The translations under genes and the position numbers were made by a program. From contig CAUVXB020000002.1 in assembly GCA_963555825.3 (NCBI GenBank), forward strand, positions 3,360,001 through 3,424,000: 64,000 nucleotides of DNA, in the 5' to 3' direction. The notes beneath the pieces are model-generated. The model was not told where the DNA came from. It saw only the letters and a list, made by a program, of their open reading frames with translations, and made no database searches. The DNA comes from Alphaproteobacteria bacterium (GTDB lineage Bacteria; Pseudomonadota; Alphaproteobacteria; JAAXGF01). Shown one piece after another: positions 1-46,201 of the stretch (the stretch's first letter is position 1; every line of letters starts with the position of its first letter).

Positions 1-178
1 TGCTCGAACATTACGGCGTCCAGGGCCTGCCGGCGCGGGTCCGGCGCCCGCGCGACAAGGGACTCGTCGAACAAGGAGTGCTTCACGTTGAGCGTAGGGT
101 CCTGGCGCCGCTGCGCAACCATGTCTTCCATGATTTGGCGTCGCTGAACCGCGCGACCGCCGCCCGGGTCCGGAAGAT
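1..178 (+). pseudogene. istA: IS21-family IstA transposase internal fragment (runs off window start)
   Basis: Frame 3 reads LEHYGVQGLPARVRRPRDKGLVEQGVLHVERRVLAPLRN, the IstA HYG..PAR...RDK..VE region; cut by GAGCTAT at 179. Confidence 0.7.
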
Positions 179-999
179 GAGCTATAGCTGAATCTTGACG
201 GGGCGGTAAAAAGTCGATTCCTCATGAGAGTCGGCTGGATTATAATTGTGCATGTTTACTTTACGCGACCGACGGACTGGGGAATTGTTTGATCGCTGGT
301 CCGATTTCGGGGACAAACGTCGGCGCCTGATGGAGCAATCCTGGGCCGGGGTTTTTCGGAACCATCTGCTTGTCGAACTTCCGGTTGACGATCTTTGCCG
401 TCACCTTGATGAACGCATGGGCCGACCATCGAAGGATCTACACGTTGTCATCGGGGTCTTGCTTTTGCAGCAGCTGCACGATCTGAGCGATGCAGAGACC
501 GTCGAGGCCCTGGCCTTCAATATGGCGTGGCACTATGCCTTGGACGTGCGCAGCGAAGCGGACAGCTATTTCTGTGAGAAAACCCTGCGCAACTATCGCC
601 GTCTGTTTATCGAACAAGGTCTCGATGAATTGCTGTTCCGGTGTTTGACGGATCGGCTGGTGCAGGGGTTCTCTGTCGATACCAGCCACCAACGCATGGA
701 TTCGACGGCCCTTCGTTCGGCAATGCGGGCGCTGACACGACTTGGTATCGTTGTTGAGAGCATCTCGAAGTTTGCCCGTGAGCTTGAGCGATATCATCCC
801 GGTCTGCACGAGCAGATCAGCAAGGAGGTGATCCGCCGCTATGTCGATCGCGAGGGTAATGGCGCGTTCGCGAATACGGCGCCGAGTGTTTCAAAACGGC
901 GCCTCGGCGAAGCGGGTCAGTATCTCCTAGCCCTGAGTCGGACCCGATTTCCTTGGACACAGAATTGGCTTAATCGAAGTGTCCAAGGAGGACCGGAAC

Positions 1000-1410
1000 A
1001 TGACCGACAATTTTGAGAACAAAGTTGCTGTTGATGGGCCTGTGGTAAACGAGGGCGAGCTTGGCTCGTCCACGTTTTCCCCGGGCCAGGTTTCGCCGGC
1101 AGGCCCGCTGGGACTTGGCCAGCGGTGGACGGTGACGCGCAAGCGTGAGGTTGCCCTGCGGCTTTTGCGTGGCGAGCCGGTGGAACTTTTGTCGCGGCAG
1201 TTGGGCGTGGAGATTTTCCGGCTCGAGCAGTGGCGTGAGAAGGCGATCGCCGGGATCGATGCCTCGCTCAAGGAACGCAAGGGCGATCCGGTGAAGGCGG
1301 AACTGGACATCGCCATGAAGCGGATCGGGGAGTTGATCATGCAGGTGGAACTGCTGGAGGCCAAGACGGAGACGTCCGGCCCTTTGGGGCGGCGGAGGTC
1401 GCGACGATGA
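1000..1410 (+). CDS. IS OrfA, HTH DNA-binding protein
   Basis: AGGAGG RBS before ATG 1000; RWTVTRKREVALRLLRGE..LSRQLGV HTH; ATGA overlap with OrfB. Confidence 0.8.
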   Translation: MTDNFENKVAVDGPVVNEGELGSSTFSPGQVSPAGPLGLGQRWTVTRKREVALRLLRGEPVELLSRQLGVEIFRLEQWREKAIAGIDASLKERKGDPVKAELDIAMKRIGELIMQVELLEAKTETSGPLGRRRSRR

Positions 1411-2318
1411 GTGCCGCCACCTCTCCCGGCACGGGTTTGGCCTACGGCCTCCAGCGGGTCTGTGCGGCCTGGGGTTTTGCCCGTTCCTCGTTCTACGCCA
1501 TGAAATCCCGGCAGCAGGCCACCGCTGAGCGCCCACCAGCAAAGCGCCGGGGACCGAAGCCCTCGATCTCGGACGAGGCTCTGCTGGTGGCCATCGAGGC
1601 CGACCTGGAGGCATCCCCCTGGGAGGGCGAGGGGCACCGCAAGGTCTGGGCTCGGCTTCGGGTCTGTCGTGGCATCCGTGTTTCCCGCAAGCGGGTGCTC
1701 CGGGTGATGCGCGAGAACAACCTGCTCTCGCCCCATCGCTGCCGCCGCCGTGGCGGAAATCCCCATGTCGGTGAGATCATCACCCATGCCCCCAACCTCA
1801 TGTGGGGCACGGACGGCGTTCGGGTGTTCACGGTGGACGACGGCTGGGGCTGGATATTCACCGCCATCGAGCATTGGAACGCCGAGTGCGTCGGCTGGCA
1901 TGTGTGCAAGCGAGGCGACCGCTTCGCCGCCCTTCAGCCGATCTCCATGGGGCTTGCGAGGCTGTATGCCTCGACCTCCGCCGGTGCGGCGCGGGGGCTG
2001 GCCTTGCGGATGGATCACGGCTCCCAGTATCTGTCGGACCACTTCACCAACCAGATCAAGTTCTGGGGCATCCAGCCGTCCTACGCCTTCGTCGAACAGC
2101 CCCAGACCAACGGCGTCGCCGAGAGGTTCAATCGCACGCTCAAGGAACAGATCATCCATGGCCGCATCTACCGCAACATCGCGGAGCTGCGGAACGCCGT
2201 CCGCGGGTTCGTCGAACAGTACAATGCCCAGTGGATCGTGGAGAAGAACGGCTACCTGAGCCCCGCTCAAGCTCGTCAGGCGTGGCACACCGCGATGTCA
2301 CTCAGGCCCGCCGCATGA
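1407..2318 (+). CDS. IS OrfB, rve/DDE transposase
   Basis: WGTD, MDHGSQY and NGVAERFNRTLKE DDE motifs. Confidence 0.9.
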   Translation: MSAATSPGTGLAYGLQRVCAAWGFARSSFYAMKSRQQATAERPPAKRRGPKPSISDEALLVAIEADLEASPWEGEGHRKVWARLRVCRGIRVSRKRVLRVMRENNLLSPHRCRRRGGNPHVGEIITHAPNLMWGTDGVRVFTVDDGWGWIFTAIEHWNAECVGWHVCKRGDRFAALQPISMGLARLYASTSAGAARGLALRMDHGSQYLSDHFTNQIKFWGIQPSYAFVEQPQTNGVAERFNRTLKEQIIHGRIYRNIAELRNAVRGFVEQYNAQWIVEKNGYLSPAQARQAWHTAMSLRPAA

Positions 2319-3449
2319 GACAAACTTGTGTCCAAGGAACCGGGTGCGATACAGTATCTCCTAGCCCTGGTGCTGCAATTCCGTGACACGGCGGCGGCAA
2401 AGCTTTTCAGTTTTGCGATCCTGGAGAGGGTTCTGCGCGATCAGTTCGAGATCGTTGATGATGAGTATGGCGATCGTGACGCAACGCGCGCCGCGATTCG
2501 AGATCCAAAGGATGTGCCGTGCGATACCGTCGGCAATCCGGCCGACCCGGACGCGAGCTACAACGCGCACAAGGGTCAAGGATACATGGCGCAGATCGTC
2601 GAAACCTATTGTGAAGATGACAGTAACGAGGCGGTTGCCGCGACACCGGACCTCATCACCCACGTGGAGGTCCACAAGATGACGGTGCATGACGGCCATC
2701 GCTTGGCCGATGCGCTGGATGATCTGAGCGAGCGCGCGCTGACGCCGGCGGTGATGCTGGGTGATTCACATTACGGTTCCAGTGACAACATGGCTCTGAC
2801 GCGCGAACAGAACATCAATCTCGTGGCGCCCGCACGACCGCCGAAAGGCGCCGTCTCGGGACGGTTGACGTTGGAGGATTTCACTCTCAACGAAGAAGGC
2901 TTGGTCTTGCGCTGTCCCAATAACGTCGAACCGGTTTCAGCCTCGCTCGCCAAAGCCAAGCTGCAGGCCCGTTTCGACCTCTCCATCTGCCAAAAATGTC
3001 CCGATATACTGCGATGTCCCGTGCAGGCGGCCAAGCGTGACGGCCAATTTTCCCGCTTTCAATATACCCCGGCCAGGGCTGCCAACCAAAAGCGCCGGCT
3101 TTATGAACAAAGCGATGCCTTCCGCAACGTCTACAGATGGCGGGCCGGCATAGAAGCGACCATGTCGCGATTAAAGTACCAGATGAACCTGGCTCACCTA
3201 CGCATTCGCGGCATGCCGGCCATGCGCTACGTGGTCAATCTGCGTGCCCTCGGCCTCAATATCCGACGCTGCGCGGCAATCGCACCATAAAAAACGAAGC
3301 CAAGGAGAAGCCAAGGGTAGGTAATATCAGGTTTTATCCACCAGCAACGCGGAGACAGGCAAATATTCTTCACCGAACCGCAAAGACCTGTACAAGCACG
3401 CCATCGGCCAACAACTTTTTACCGCCCCGTCAACTTTTGACAATAGCTC

Positions 3450-4762
3450 CGCAGTCGAGCTGTCCACTTATCCGCAGAGCGCCGGCCGGTCGCGTCGAAG
3501 CGGATCACGCGGCCCGCCTTTCGCTGCTTTCGATCGGCGTGCCGTCTTTCTTGTAGCGGGCCAGGCAGCGCTGGCCATGGAAGACGGCAAGGTCGCCGTC
3601 GGGATATTCGTGCACACTCACTTTGGCCTTGACGTAGTGGTGGCGATGGCGGCCTGCCGGGATCTGCAGGCTCAAGTTCTTGTAGCGCACCGTGTTGTCA
3701 TTGCCGACCACACGGTCCTCCTGCACACAGAGGATGTCCGCCAGGTTGCCGGCGAACGGCACGAAGGCGGAGCCTGTGTCCTCGGCCGGCCGGGCGAAGC
3801 GGGCATTGTGGGCCGGCAGGAAGTCCTCTTTCAGGAACCGGTTGGCGGCCGCCATATCGGTGATGCCGGCGAGCTCGAGTTCCTGCGGCAGGCGTTTCTG
3901 CAGGGTGCCGAACATGCGCTCCGAGCGGCCCCGGGCCTCCGGCGAATAGGCCGGGATCAGCTCAATACCGAGTTGCTGCAGGGCACGTCCGACCTGGGTT
4001 GGATTGTCCTTGTCGACCTTGCCGCCGGCCTCCGGCGTGTGCCAATAGTGCGAGGCCCGGTCTGCATAAAGCGAGCAGAACAGCCCCATGGCCGACCCCA
4101 CCTCCAGCAGCGCCACAAAGCTCGACATGGTGCCCTCCTCGGCGACGAAGAAGGCGGAATAGATCTCCGAAGTGGCATCGTCCATGGTCACGATCAGGTC
4201 CCAGTACTGACCCGGCACCCATTGGTGCGCGGAGCCGTCCTGGTGCAACATCATGCCGACCATCGGCCGGCGCGGCCGCTTGCGGCGGTGCACGCCGCGC
4301 CGCGGCGCCGGCGCGATCCGGCCGTGCGCCTGGAGCGTCAGCCGCACCCAGTTGTAACTGCGCGTGACGTCGTGCTTTGCAACCAGCTTCTCCCAGAAGT
4401 GCCAGGCGGTGAAATGCCGGTACCTGGTATCGAACAGATCCAACAGTGCCACCACCTCGTCGACCCCGGCGCGGCGCGCGGAAACCCGACCCAGGCGGCG
4501 GTCGTAAAGACCCTCCGCGCCCTCGGCCTCAAAGCGATCGCGCCAGCGTCGGAACGTGCGCTCGGACATGCCCAGGATCTCGGCTGCCTCCAGCTGGCTC
4601 AACTCACCCCTGTAGGTGCGTCCGTAAACCTCATCGAACTTCATCAATCTCAACCCCTGTAACTGCTCTGTCCGGCGCATCAGCTTCGCCACTTTCTGGA
4701 GGAGTTCTAATGCCGGACAGATCATTTGTTACATTGACCGGCCATATCACGTGTTATCGACA
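3450..4762 (-). mobile_element. IS1202-like (ISNCY/IS481-related) IS, right end truncated
   Basis: End GTGTTATCGACA at 4762; homologous to 57124-58513; cut at 3449 by an IS256 outer end. Confidence 0.8.
3505..4680 (-). CDS. IS1202/ISNCY-type DDE transposase
   Basis: N-terminal HTH (LSQLEAAEILGMSERTFRRW), HQDGS, MDDAT, YADR, SPEARGRSERMFGTLQKRL. Confidence 0.88.
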   Translation of the reverse strand: MRRTEQLQGLRLMKFDEVYGRTYRGELSQLEAAEILGMSERTFRRWRDRFEAEGAEGLYDRRLGRVSARRAGVDEVVALLDLFDTRYRHFTAWHFWEKLVAKHDVTRSYNWVRLTLQAHGRIAPAPRRGVHRRKRPRRPMVGMMLHQDGSAHQWVPGQYWDLIVTMDDATSEIYSAFFVAEEGTMSSFVALLEVGSAMGLFCSLYADRASHYWHTPEAGGKVDKDNPTQVGRALQQLGIELIPAYSPEARGRSERMFGTLQKRLPQELELAGITDMAAANRFLKEDFLPAHNARFARPAEDTGSAFVPFAGNLADILCVQEDRVVGNDNTVRYKNLSLQIPAGRHRHHYVKAKVSVHEYPDGDLAVFHGQRCLARYKKDGTPIESSERRAA

Positions 4763-33611: not shown

Positions 33612-36600
33612 CCGGGATTCCCCATATGAAACCCTCCCAGCCCGTTGAGTGTGACTCGAAACCGCTCGACGTTCAATTCGCCTTCGAATGACGGCCATCT
33701 TCGCGCCGATCCGGATGATTGAGGATCAATTGGCGGCGTTGGTGGCGCGGAATGGCATTTTTGCCGACGATCCGGGCGCACCGATCCTGTCGGCGGCGAC
33801 GCGAAGGAACGGGGTGCCGTCGCTCATGCCGGGGCTGGCGGCGGTCTGAGCCGGTCGATACGGCGCAGGATGTCGGCGAATAGGTCACGAGGAATGACAA
33901 CCTCGGCCATCTGGAACGTGACGTAGCGCCCGTGGCGCACGATCTTGAGCTATAACCGAATCTTGTGTACGGCGTTGAAATGAAGGCGGCGTATCCTGGT
34001 GATTGTTGATGTCACCACTTGAGCTAAGCCAAGGAAGGATACGCCATGAAAGAGAATACCGTTGTTGCTTTTCAAAACCCATCTGATTTTCAGAAAGATC
34101 CGTTGACGGAAGTCCTACAAGCTGGAGCTCGCGAGTTGTTGGCCCAAGCCGTTGAGGCCGAGGTCTCCGTGTTTTTGGGTAGCCATGCGGCGCTTGTTGA
34201 CGCCGCCGGCCGCCGCCGGGTTGTCCGCAATGGATATCTGCCGGAACGCTTCATCCAGACCGGGATCGGCCCGGTGAGCGTGCGCCAACCCCGTGTGCGG
34301 GACCGGGGGGACGGCGCCATCCGCTTCACGTCGGCGATCCTGCCGCGCTATCTGCGCCGCGCCAAGAGCCTGGAAGACCTTTTGCCATGGCTGTATCTGA
34401 AGGGCATTTCCACCGGCGACTTCGGGGAAGCCTTGGCGGCGCTCCTGGGGAGCTCCGCGCCGGGGCTTTCGGCCTCCACGATCACCCGGCTGAAAGAGGT
34501 CTGGGGGGTTGAGGCGGAGCGCTGGCAACGGCGCGACCTCACGGCCAAGCGCTACGTCTATTTCTGGGTGGACGGCATCTATTTCAGCGCCCGCATGGAG
34601 GAAGAGAAGCAGTGCATCCTGGTGATCGTCGGGGCCACGGACAAGGGACAGAAGGAACTGATCGCCATCGCCGACGGCTATCGCGAAAGTGAGCAGTCCT
34701 GGCTCGAAGTTCTGCTCGATCTCAAGCGGCGCGGCCTTGAAATGGGTCCGCAACTGGCGCTCGGCGACGGCGCGCTCGGCTTCTGGAAGGCGCTCCGCCA
34801 AGTCTACCCAGGCGCCCGCGAGCAACGCTGCTGGGTTCACAAGACGGGCAACGTCTTGAACAAGCTGCCCAAGGGTCTGCAAAAGAAAGCCAAGGGGCGC
34901 CTGCAAGACATCTGGATGGCCGAAACCAGGAAGGATGCCGAGAGCGCCTTCGACTTCTTCCTGGAAGCCTACGGGCCGAAGTACGACAAGGCCGCGGCCT
35001 GCCTGGCCAAGGACCGCGACGTCCTGCTGACGTTCTACGACTTCCCCGCCGAGCACTGGAAGCATGTACGCACGACCAACCCCATCGAGAGCACGTTCGC
35101 CACGGTTCGTCTGCGCACCTACCGGACCAAGGGCTGCCTGTCGCGCAAGACGGCGATGGCCATGGTCTTCAAACTATGCCAGTGCGCTCAGAGAAAATGG
35201 AGAAAACTCGATGGATCGAACCATCTCGCCGAGATCATTCGCGGCGTCAAATTCGTAGATGGAGAACGCCAGGATCGCGCCGCCGCATGATCAGCCCATA
35301 CACAACTTTTGACAATAGCTCCACGATCTTCGCTCCGATCTTGATGAGCTTCTCTCGCAGGCTGGTCAGTGACCACTGTTCCACGGCATCGGGCAGCGCG
35401 AGGGTGCGCATGAAGTTGCCGAGGTTGTAGGCGAGCGCGTGAAGCTGGAGGCGAACGGCATTGTGGTCGAACCTGCGGCACGACAGGCGTGTCCACCGGA
35501 TCGCGTTTTTGCCCTCCTTGATCCATTGCTCAGCCGTGCCGCGCTGATTATAGAACGCGACCACCCGCTCGGCGGGGCGGCCCAGGTTGGTGACAATGAA
35601 CCCGACCCGCGGGTACAACTCACCCGGATGCCACTCGACCTTGGCGACGACGCGGCGGGGCTTGTCCCAGGTTCCGGCCTGATAACTGAAGCTGGCATGA
35701 TACCGGCGCACGTCCTTGGGCGGCCTGCCGACGGGGCGCTTCAGGAGATGAGCGATGCTCTCTTGCAGCACCTTGTTGGCGGGCAGCCGGATGGCGTAGA
35801 GCATTCCTTCGGCTTCGAGGTAGTCGTAGATCTCCGGTGAGGCGAAGGCCGCATCGCCGCGGAAGTAGAGGCGGATGGCTCGTTCCTTGTAACGTTCGAC
35901 CACTGGTACCAGGACGTCACGCCATCCGTGGGCGCTGTGCACGTTGCCGGGGCGCAGCGCGCAACGCTCCAGGTCGCCGAACTGGTTGAACACGAACAGC
36001 GGGTGATAGCAGGTGCAGCCGAAGTGGCCGTTATAGGCCGTGCCCTCCTGCTCACCGAATGTCGGGCTGACGGAGCTGTCCATTTCGAGCACGACGCGCC
36101 TCGGCGGATCGTGGTCGTGACCCCGGTCGATCCACATCCCCGACAGGTCCGCAAGGGCCGCGAGGTTCTCGTTGTTCGCCAGCAGCTCGGTCTCGAACCG
36201 CCCCATCTGGCTGGTCGGTGCCCCGCCGCGCTCGACCGCCTTGCCGCCGACGATCCAGCGCATCGCGGGATCACGCCCGAGCCGGTCGGCGTCGTTGACA
36301 TCCTCGTAGCCGGCGAGACGGCCATAGACGGACTGGCGAAGGAGACTGACGATGCCGTGCCAGCCGTTCCTGCCCGTACGGCTATCCGCGAGCACGCCGC
36401 CCGCCAGTGCGGTCAGCCCGAGCGCGTCGTCCAGTTCGCGATAAGCGAGCAACCCCGCATCGGAGGTCACCCGCGATCCGTGGAACTCCAGTTTCAGGCG
36501 GCGGCCGAAAAGGGGCCGGAGTGGCCCATGATCCGATTCACCCTCCGGGTTCCGCATCCGAGCCACCCTCCGACACCCTCAAGCCAGTGATTCTTATAGC

Positions 36601-44113: not shown

Positions 44114-46201
44114 GAGCTATTGTCAAAAGTTGACGGGGCGGTAAAAAGTTGTTGGCCGATGGCGTGCTTGTACAGGTCTTTGCGGTTCGGTGAAGAATAT
44201 TTGCCTGTCTCCGCGTTGCTGGTGGATAAAACCTGATATTACCTATCCTTGGCTTCTCCTTGGCTTCGTTTTTTATGGTGCGATTGCCGCGCAGCGTCGG
44301 ATATTGAGGCCGAGGGCACGCAGATTGACCACGTAGCGCATGGCCGGCATGCCGCGAATGCGTAGGTGAGCCAGGTTCATCTGGTACTTTAATCGCGACA
44401 TGGTCGCTTCTATGCCGGCCCGCCATCTGTAGACGTCGCGGAAGGCATCGCTTTGTTCATAAAGCCGGCGCTTTTGGTTGGCAGCCCTGGCCGGGGTATA
44501 TTGAAAGCGGGAAAATTGGCCGTCACGCTTGGCCGCCTGCACGGGACATCGCAGTATATCGGGACATTTTTGGCAGATGGAAAGGTCGAAACGGGCCTGC
44601 AGCTTGGCTTTGGCGAGCGAGGCTGAAACCGGTTCGACGTTATTGGGACAGCGCAAGACCAAGCCTTCTTCGTTGAGAGTGAAATCCTCCAACGTCAACC
44701 GTCCCGAGACGGCGCCTTTCGGCGGTCGCGCGGGCGCCACGAGATTGATGTTCTGTTCGCGCGTCAGAGCCATGTTGTCACTGGAACCGTAATGTGAATC
44801 ACCCAGCATCACCGCCGGCGTCAGCGCGCGCTCGCTCAGATCATCCAGCGCATCGGCCAAGCGATGGCCGTCATGCACCGTCATCTTGTGGACCTCCACG
44901 TGGGTGATGAGGTCCGGTGTCGCGGCAACCGCCTCGTTACTGTCATCTTCACAATAGGTTTCGACGATCTGCGCCATGTATCCTTGACCCTTGTGCGCGT
45001 TGTAGCTCGCGTCCGGGTCGGCCGGATTGCCGACGGTATCGCACGGCACATCCTTTGGATCTCGAATCGCGGCGCGCGTTGCGTCACGATCGCCATACTC
45101 ATCATCAACGATCTCGAACTGATCGCGCAGAACCCTCTCCAGGATCGCAAAACTGAAAAGCTTTGCCGCCGCCGTGTCACGGAATTGCAGCACCAGGGCT
45201 AGGAGATACTGACCCGCTTCGCCGAGGCGCCGTTTTGAAACACTCGGCGCCGTATTCGCGAACGCGCCATTACCCTCGCGATCGACATAGCGGCGGATCA
45301 CCTCCTTGCTGATCTGCTCGTGCAGACCGGGATGATATCGCTCAAGCTCACGGGCAAACTTCGAGATGCTCTCAACAACGATACCAAGTCGTGTCAGCGC
45401 CCGCATTGCCGAACGAAGGGCCGTCGAATCCATGCGTTGGTGGCTGGTATCGACAGAGAACCCCTGCACCAGCCGATCCGTCAAACACCGGAACAGCAAT
45501 TCATCGAGACCTTGTTCGATAAACAGACGGCGATAGTTGCGCAGGGTTTTCTCACAGAAATAGCTGTCCGCTTCGCTGCGCACGTCCAAGGCATAGTGCC
45601 ACGCCATATTGAAGGCCAGGGCCTCGACGGTCTCTGCATCGCTCAGATCGTGCAGCTGCTGCAAAAGCAAGACCCCGATGACAACGTGTAGATCCTTCGA
45701 TGGTCGGCCCATGCGTTCATCAAGGTGACGGCAAAGATCGTCAACCGGAAGTTCGACAAGCAGATGGTTCCGAAAAACCCCGGCCCAGGATTGCTCCATC
45801 AGGCGCCGACGTTTGTCCCCGAAATCGGACCAGCGATCAAACAATTCCCCAGTCCGTCGGTCGCGTAAAGTAAACATGCACAATTATAATCCAGCCGACT
45901 CTCATGAGGAATCGACTTTTTACCGCCCCGTCAAAAGTTGTGTATGGGCTGATCATGCGGCGGCGCGATCCTGGCGTTCTCCATCTACGAATTTGACGCC
46001 GCGAATGATCTCGGCGAGATGGTTCGATCCATCGAGTTTTCTCCATTTTCTCTGAGCGCACTGGCATAGTTTGAAGACCATGGCCATCGCCGTCTTGCGC
46101 GACAGGCAGCCCTTGGTCCGGTAGGTGCGCAGACGAACCGTGGCGAACGTGCTCTCGATGGGGTTGGTCGTGCGTACATGCTTCCAGTGCTCGGCGGGGA
46201 A
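44114..46201 (-). mobile_element. IS256 type 2 3' remnant with an IS inserted in its right TIR
   Basis: 45933-46201 matches about 35042-35310; outer TIR part at 44114-44131. Confidence 0.88.
44132..45932 (-). mobile_element. IS1182/IS5-like IS, copy 2, intact (transposase 44273..45877)
   Basis: TIRs as in copy 1; flanking duplication AAAAGTT; GRPS, RMDS, DPDASY, GDSHYG, RAGIEATMS. Confidence 0.9.

Follow-up and report, generated by a model that had tools for sequence, protein, structure and literature searches.

Near the left end of a 64,000-nucleotide stretch of an alphaproteobacterial genome (the window, G000:C2:3360001-3424000, where G000 is the 6.04-Mb genome), an insertion sequence (IS) resembling the IS1182 family is enclosed by two 18-bp segments that look like the outer ends of IS256-family elements. 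A second, intact copy in the same window sits inside the terminal inverted repeat (TIR) of an IS256-family element, immediately after its 18th base. The locus raises the question of how one transposable element comes to insert at a single base of the end of another, and how an enclosed copy such as the first could arise. Comparison of the sequences makes it very probable that the IS1182-like element finds IS256 ends by recognising a DNA motif, rather than by being tethered to the IS256 transposase, and that the enclosed copy (copy 1) is a scar of recombination.

Both 30-bp ends of the IS1182-like element (end A and end B, copy 1 running from A to B on the plus strand) were searched in the whole genome with at most two mismatches. 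The search revealed 36 A ends and 38 B ends, and 72 of the 74 flanks are IS256-family TIRs cut exactly after base 18, the exceptions being both ends of a single copy. The flanks comprise 40 tips, the outer 18 nt of a TIR ending in ATAGCTC (one of 17 nt in a decayed copy), and 34 inner halves, the rest of the TIR starting with the same 7 bp; the two non-IS256 flanks, those of the copy at C1:863122-866356, are counted within these classes. With 19 tips at end A and 21 at end B, the element shows no orientation preference. Full copies hit four TIR variants, IRL-1, IRR-1, IRL-2 and IRL-3 (IRL and IRR denoting the left and right TIRs of the elements IS256-1, IS256-2 and IS256-3), and a fifth is hit only in an old remnant. 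As the genome carries about 112 IS256-family TIRs of this kind, a random insertion would meet the exact target base with a probability of about 2e-5, and chance is therefore excluded as the source of these flanks. The position-specific targeting proposed in the first-pass annotation was examined by aligning the flanks of all genome copies and of homologues to IS256 TIRs; the register is fixed at base 18, the flanks are non-random, and the targeting extends to the whole homologue clade.

Pairing of the ends gave 34 copies: 28 simple insertions with a perfect 7-bp target-site duplication (TSD), three with a tip on both sides (tip/tip), two mixed and one decayed, with six ends left unpaired. A duplication of 3-9 bp had been described before, depending on where the ends were drawn; the duplication is real, and its width can now be set at exactly 7 bp, because the terminal G and C belong to the element. 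These termini are still there when the target bases beside the 7-mer differ from them, as in L002, one of 53 loci (L001-L053) from a scan of one genome per species. Single-nucleotide polymorphism (SNP) haplotypes were built from 43 variable columns among 25 full-length copies. The same haplotype is found in different TIR types and orientations and every target class has several haplotypes, with about 18 class-by-haplotype combinations counted from the haplotype table. As the haplotypes are not partitioned by target class, most hits appear to be independent insertions rather than copies of a few composites. Comparison of intact TIRs with tip junctions gives 25 versus 13 for IRL-1, 29 versus 14 for IRR-1, 5 versus 10 for IRL-2 and 16 versus 0 for IRR-2; the occupied share is one third to two thirds in three TIR types.

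Homologues with as little as about 50% amino-acid identity, from other genomes and from metagenomes, are flanked by IS256 TIRs in the same way. Among 104 distinct flanks of L001-L053, 37 have at least five of the seven bases of ATAGCTC at positions 12-18, versus 0-2 of 104 at seven control offsets. A set of 57 metagenome contigs with homologues of 47-90% amino-acid identity yields 64 distinct flanks, of which 32 are tips, 14 are inner halves, 2 are tandem copies and 16 are of other kinds, counted end by end since flank pairings on short-read contigs are possibly assembly chimeras. A homologue of 56% identity (L115) shows a clean insertion in an IS256-type TIR with the TSD AACATTT. A search of 12 genomes from the host's family did not detect the IS1182-like element, 40 other genomes gave one match of 37% identity, and a plasmid collection gave one record. 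TIRs were sought and not found for the 37%-identical homologue L061, hence no flanks could be read there.

The element also inserts at sites outside IS256. The exceptional copy at C1:863122-866356 lies in the target GAACTATATCC[GATCATC]T, a look-alike of the TIR tip in the same 18-nt register, and no IS256 transposase match was found around it (C1, 858-872 kb). In OZ250147.1, 21 fetched loci carry 99%-identical copies in degenerate look-alike sites; no IS256 was found in the 1.5-kb flanks of any of them, and the IS256 transposase model NF033543 gave 0 matches in the assembled part of the metagenome-assembled genome to which this record belongs (G041). G041 has only four perfect motif sites, of which one is an occupied junction. 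When 61 non-IS256 flanks were combined into a logo irrespective of orientation, the signals were R1 (56/61), A2 (58), T6 (55), Y7 (52) and G8 (42), with weaker signals at A12, T13, R14, C16, T17 and C18 (37/61) and nothing beyond position 18. This logo is a weak form of the IS256 TIR-tip motif in the same register. Of the 115 matches to the motif GAG[CT]TAT-N4-RANNNTY in G000, 113 belong to IS256 TIRs or to junctions with them, and the two exceptions have no G at position 19. Therefore, the motif alone predicts the distribution of the element.

Based on these sites, we propose that the transposase of the IS1182-like element would choose its target by DNA sequence at a bipartite site. One part would be a near-palindromic core, C-[RANNNTY]-G, around the 7-bp staggered cut, and the other GAG(C/T)TAT, lying 11-18 bp from the joint on either side. 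Usability of the outer motif on either side would explain why the element lands in both orientations; at L045 a single 7-bp TSD is flanked on each side by the outer motif. In one IS256-family subgroup, TIR bases 1-19 fit this bipartite site perfectly, and the insertion falls after TIR base 18 and duplicates bases 12-18. The transposase itself would recognise the target, with a reader on both protomers of a two-fold transpososome.

The intact copy of the element (copy 2) is 1801 bp long, with perfect 18-bp TIRs (GACGGGGCGGTAAAAAGT), non-coding ends of 49 and 141 bp and a single open reading frame (ORF) of 536 aa. The encoded transposase has an N-terminal DUF772 domain (PF05598, E 2e-12) and C-terminal DDE_Tnp_1_6 (PF13751, E 2.4e-13) and DDE_Tnp_1 (PF01609, E 2.6e-8) domains, all above the cut-offs, which is the domain arrangement of the IS1182 family. 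A single ORF between short TIRs and a TSD, perfect in 28 of the 34 paired copies, likewise agree with this family. The top NCBIfam model is IS1182 (NF033551; 173.3 bits, E 8.5e-51), but the score falls below its equivalog cut-off of 270 bits, and we therefore name the element IS1182-like rather than a family member. A DEDD recombinase with a guide RNA in a long non-coding end was looked for and not recognised, the sole ORF encoding a DDE transposase (no RNA-family scan was made). Public sources label its relatives merely 'transposase'; of 7999 candidates, 804 proteins score E<=1e-20. We regard the 1801-bp element as an autonomous DDE insertion sequence belonging to an IS1182-like clade that is uncatalogued.

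The transposase of the host element IS256-1 scores 320 bits against NF033543 (cut-off 150) and matches the Mutator-type PF00872 with E 1.3e-58. TIRs of about 26 bp and a TSD of 8-9 bp are also those of the IS256 family: intact copies carry an uninterrupted 26-bp TIR, a TSD flanks 13 of the 16 intact IS256-1 copies (9 bp long in 12 and 8 bp in one), and all five unhit IS256-2 copies have one of 9 bp. IS256-2 and IS256-3 are 72% and 84% identical to IS256-1, respectively, and the IS256-1 copies in G000 are 100% identical to one another.

Several points weigh against our proposal. The motif is present in IRR-2, the right TIR of IS256-2 (GAGCTATGTCCGAAAGTTG), which is nevertheless intact in all 16 cases (e.g. 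G000:C2:3269990-3270032), whereas IRL-2 of the same element has 10 tip junctions versus 5 intact copies, and TIRs much like IRR-2 are hit in other genomes. The motif as written would therefore be incomplete, or the history of hits uneven. In addition, IS256 transposase may play a helper role where it is present. The contrast between IRR-2 and IRL-2 may reflect extra determinants, transposase occupancy or the spread of composites. G at TIR position 8 was considered as a reason for the sparing of IRR-2 and rejected, as TIRs with G8 are hit in L036, L040, L041 and L090. None of the IS256-2 SNPs was informative in separating hit from unhit lineages, the copies being almost identical with 8 variable columns. 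At least five IRL-2 hits look independent by haplotype and orientation.

Whether an IS256 element hit at one end can still move bears on how these hits spread. Excerpts of a study of ISCth4, an IS256-family element, report that separate transposase domains contact bp 1-12 and bp 14-25 of the TIR, that integration is poor with TIRs shorter than 25 bp, and that trimming one TIR of a junction to 14 bp slows integration without abolishing it (PMC7780238). By analogy with these contacts, a hit after base 18 would separate the two binding sites and probably disables the IS256 end that it strikes, and IS256 transposase should act poorly on a unit whose two ends are 18-bp tips, but an IS256 element hit at one end only might still be mobile. 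On these grounds it is conceivable, although unlikely, that the clade is a dedicated hyperparasite of IS256 with two routes, its own target reading and a ride on mobile IS256 elements hit in one TIR. The intact TIR would then serve as the donor and the retained 18-bp tip as the recipient end, for which the ISCth4 junction data would leave room, and the passenger would be carried to new sites and hosts. If true, this would also account for the ratio of 10 to 5 at IRL-2 and 0 of 16 at IRR-2.

We consider it quite improbable that there were few true targeting events and that most hits are copied composites of IS256 elements that kept transposing after a hit in one TIR. Five of seven hit IS256-2 composites have an 8-9-bp TSD around the whole composite, the uneven hits on IRL-2 and IRR-2 point the same way, and in ISCth4 a single shortened TIR still permits integration according to the excerpts (PMC7780238). 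However, an IS256 that had inserted before it was hit would be expected to show such a TSD just as well, and the several haplotypes within each target class, together with the recurrence of one haplotype in different classes and orientations, in about 18 combinations among 25 copies, argue against copying.

The features of the window are given in Table 1; re-reading confirmed the coordinates of copy 1, copy 2, IS256-1 and their flanks.

Table 1. Mobile elements and their parts in the window around the two IS1182-like copies and the unhit IS256-1 (positions in the window).
Feature	Position	Strand	Details
IS21-family transposase gene fragment, left flank, truncated at the hybrid	1-178	+	NCBIfam NF033546, E 8e-14, profile positions 210-266 of 294
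Outer 18 bp (bases 1-18) of IS256-2/IS256-3-type left TIR	179-196	+	GAGCTATAGCTGAATCTT; same 18-mer precedes the inner TIR half in intact IS256-2
IS1182-like copy 1	197-3431	+	Ends GACGGGGCGGTAAAAAGT...ACTTTTTACCGCCCCGTC; opposite orientation to copy 2; split by IS3-like insertion
IS3-family-like element	934-2353	+	1420 bp, TG...CA; orfA 979-1410, orfB 1407-2318; 14-bp TSD 920-933 / 2354-2367
Outer 18 bp of IS256-1 right TIR	3432-3449	-	AACTTTTGACAATAGCTC (reverse complement GAGCTATTGTCAAAAGTT)
ISNCY-family element, right flank	3450-4762	-	1313 bp; transposase 3505-4725 on -; NF033594 341 bits
TSD of IS256-1	33938-33946 and 35322-35330		9 bp, CACGATCTT
IS256-1, intact IS256-family element	33947-35321	+	1375 bp; transposase 34046-35290; unhit reference target
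Outer 18 bp of IS256-1 right TIR	44114-44131	+	GAGCTATTGTCAAAAGTT; last 7 bp AAAAGTT (44125-44131) are TSD copy one
IS1182-like copy 2, intact	44132-45932	-	1801 bp; transposase 44273-45883 on -, 536 aa
Inner part of the same IS256-1	45933-46201	-	Begins AAAAGTTGTGTATGGG; TSD copy two AAAAGTT 45933-45939; body cut off at IS256 position 1096

Copy 1 differs from copy 2 in bearing a tip on either side. No IS256 body lies within it and no TSD lies outside the two tips, as the first-pass annotation had stated. The left 18-mer had been taken for a 16/18 variant of the IS256 end at 33947; instead, it matches the left tip of IS256-2 and IS256-3 exactly. The IS21 fragment has a 96%-identical paralogue at C2:118099-118904 that reads on past the break. 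The continuation of the IS21 gene missing beside copy 1 was found nowhere else in the genome, and the reciprocal recombination product was likewise sought there and not found. The junction of IS1182-like end, IS256 tip and ISNCY is repeated at C2:2831905. With tips from IS256-2/3 and IS256-1, unrelated flanks and no TSD, copy 1 bears the mark of homologous recombination: two copies of the IS1182-like element, each lying in a different IS256 element, recombined and left this scar. It had been suggested before that insertions in both TIRs had recombined; the recombination stands, whereas its assignment to the two TIRs of one IS256 does not. The parents would have been a copy in an IS256-2/3-type left TIR within IS21 and a copy in the right TIR of IS256-1 beside ISNCY, and the intervening DNA would have been lost or rearranged. 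The two mixed copies in G000 can be explained only as recombinants, and IS256 copies hit in both TIRs by direct-oriented copies are present and are likely precursors of hybrids (e.g. C1:883113-888067). Copy 1 itself is dead, because the IS3-like insertion splits its transposase gene into 246-1016 and 2328-3290.

The first-pass annotation had suggested that tip/tip hybrids like copy 1 might be mobilised by IS256 transposase, and we regard it as very unlikely that they are functional chimeric transposons moved in trans in this way. Thirteen distinct tip/tip units were collected, three in G000 and the others in L036, L039, L040, L041, L050, L054, L092, L103/104, L106/107 and L121; pairings read from short-read contigs may be wrong in some of these. 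Two of them, L054 on a Microvirga plasmid (9 bp, ATGGAGTGG) and L036 (8 bp, ACGGGCGG), are flanked by IS256-type TSDs, the Microvirga plasmid has a second, 83%-identical partial copy with the same kind of junction, and the 14-bp ISCth4 junction described above still integrates. Yet no TSD was found around the three hybrids of G000, which leaves 8-9-bp TSDs at 2 of the 13, and no unit recurs among the 13 with the same tip pair at several sites with TSDs of its own. In-place deletion between two direct copies in one IS256 explains both TSD-flanked cases, because the TSD of the parent IS256 is retained. Both hybrid ends also lack bp 19-26, and bp 14-25 of ISCth4 are bound by a dedicated domain, according to the same excerpts (PMC7780238). 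The data thus do not support mobilisation of the hybrid.

The first-pass annotation had considered targeting via bound IS256 transposase, and it is highly improbable that IS256 transposase on its own TIR recruits the IS1182-like transposase with a protein contact setting the register. Such tethering would fit the 72 of 74 flanks that are IS256 TIR halves and a register counted from the TIR tip, and the sparing of IRR-2, which fits the motif, could reflect differing protein occupancy. It does not fit the insertion in G000 at a non-IS256 look-alike site, the 21 fetched copies in G041 without IS256-family transposase, or the degenerate TIR-tip motif in the same register in the non-IS256 logo; with just two non-IS256 motif sites in G000, the exclusivity for TIRs needs no tether. 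These observations, together with the motif counts, favour DNA recognition over recruitment, and tethering is largely refuted already.

That the 18-bp segments are the outer ends of the IS1182-like element itself is virtually excluded: tips exceed inner halves 32 to 14 on metagenome contigs, but this excess is expected from contigs breaking inside the repeated IS256 body, and copy 2 and 27 similar copies refute the idea, having a tip on one side, the rest of the same TIR with the IS256 body on the other and a 7-bp IS256 repeat, while intact IS256 copies have a continuous 26-bp TIR. A likeness of the element's own TIR to IS256 was also examined and rejected; AAAAGTTGT is common to end B and IRR-1, one base out of register, which is too weak, and the IRL targets (GAATCTT) are without it.

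Further observations were made on the homologues. Copies with 97-99% protein identity are present in assemblies whose labels name different orders and even another phylum (L052, a fragment only). The 99%-identical copies across differently labelled orders suggest recent horizontal spread, or may stem from binning cross-talk between assemblies. Head-to-tail tandem copies with an exact 7-bp spacer are present at L003:1444-1452, L036:1962-1970, L051:2198-2206 and L091:256-264; the spacer is the adjacent TSD in L003 and L051, and in L036 it is the 7-mer of another TIR of the same genome (L023). These tandems could arise by re-insertion into the surviving half-site or through a circle or dimer intermediate, and they fit re-use of the half-site because the terminal GA of the element mimics positions 19-20. 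Two copies of a 78%-identical homologue have two extra bases just outside end A, separating it from the TIR 18-mer or inner half (TT at L040:1445 and CC at L042:1445); a third copy, L041, is without them. A stretch of about 100 bp beside a full copy (L091:156-256) is bounded by both end motifs of the IS1182-like element and may be a miniature derivative.

The load of insertion sequences in G000 is extreme, with about 60 IS256-family copies of at least three kinds and about 40 IS1182-like copies, in addition to IS21 and ISNCY elements and 79 full-length copies of the IS3-like element. The orfA of the latter (143 aa) has no Pfam hit, and its orfB has rve domains and scores 156 bits against the NCBIfam IS3 model (cut-off 160). 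An exact 14-bp TSD was found in 46 of its 79 copies and a 15-bp TSD in 7, far longer than the 3-5 bp of the IS3 family.

Insertion of an IS into the TIRs of another transposon is known in kind. IS4321 and IS5075 insert at one fixed position in the 38-bp TIRs of Tn21-family transposons and can cripple that end, similar to the present case; they do so in one orientation and without a classical TSD. The IS1182-like element, unlike them, has a single DDE transposase, a 7-bp TSD, both orientations and IS256 hosts. Excerpts of the literature describe IS4321 and IS5075, of the IS1111 group of the IS110 family, as using a DEDD recombinase guided by a non-coding seekRNA or bridge RNA (PMC11187229, PMC11208160). 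IS231A of the IS4 family is, like our element, a DDE insertion sequence, and a target consensus with flanking determinants is described for it in the excerpted source. Its preferred site is the terminal repeat of Tn4430, and its TSD is 10-12 bp. It belongs to another family, and it shows a preference where the IS1182-like element shows near-exclusivity. The members of the IS1182 family proper, IS1272 and ISPse1, share DUF772, DDE_Tnp_1 and DDE_Tnp_1_6 domains, a single ORF and short TIRs with our element, and, unlike it, neither is reported in IS256 ends. The excerpts consulted state that IS1272 targets inverted-repeat structures without a TSD (PMC5678879) and that ISPse1 is 1653 bp long with a 4-bp TSD (PMC3281130). 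ISAjo2 of the IS1202 family, as far as the excerpted account goes, likewise lies at a fixed distance from a conserved, multi-copy and functionally constrained DNA site; this site is dif/pdif rather than the end of a transposon, and ISAjo2 belongs to another IS family than our element. No prior account of an IS1182-type element in IS256 ends was found in the full-text literature searched, ISfinder and subscription journals lying outside the search. Judged from sequence comparison, the occupation of IS256 ends by an IS1182-like DDE element is well supported.

The IS1182-like element is a plain, single-protein DDE transposon with a near-absolute choice of site, about 19 bp long and used at 72 of 74 ends. 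Its only ORF encodes the transposase, and neither an accessory protein nor a guide RNA was recognised in it, no RNA-family scan having been made. It is a clear example from nature of an IS that lives on another IS: its target is the conserved end of IS256-family transposons, a target that is harmless to the host cell and that the IS256 elements themselves multiply and spread. The near-identical copies drive deletions and rearrangements, of which copy 1 is one scar. For annotation, hits at base 18 explain the contigs of about 1.8-2.3 kb into which relatives of the element assemble, as well as IS256 ends that look broken. The proposed bipartite target would provide a testable model of how enzymes of the IS1182/IS5 type read their targets.

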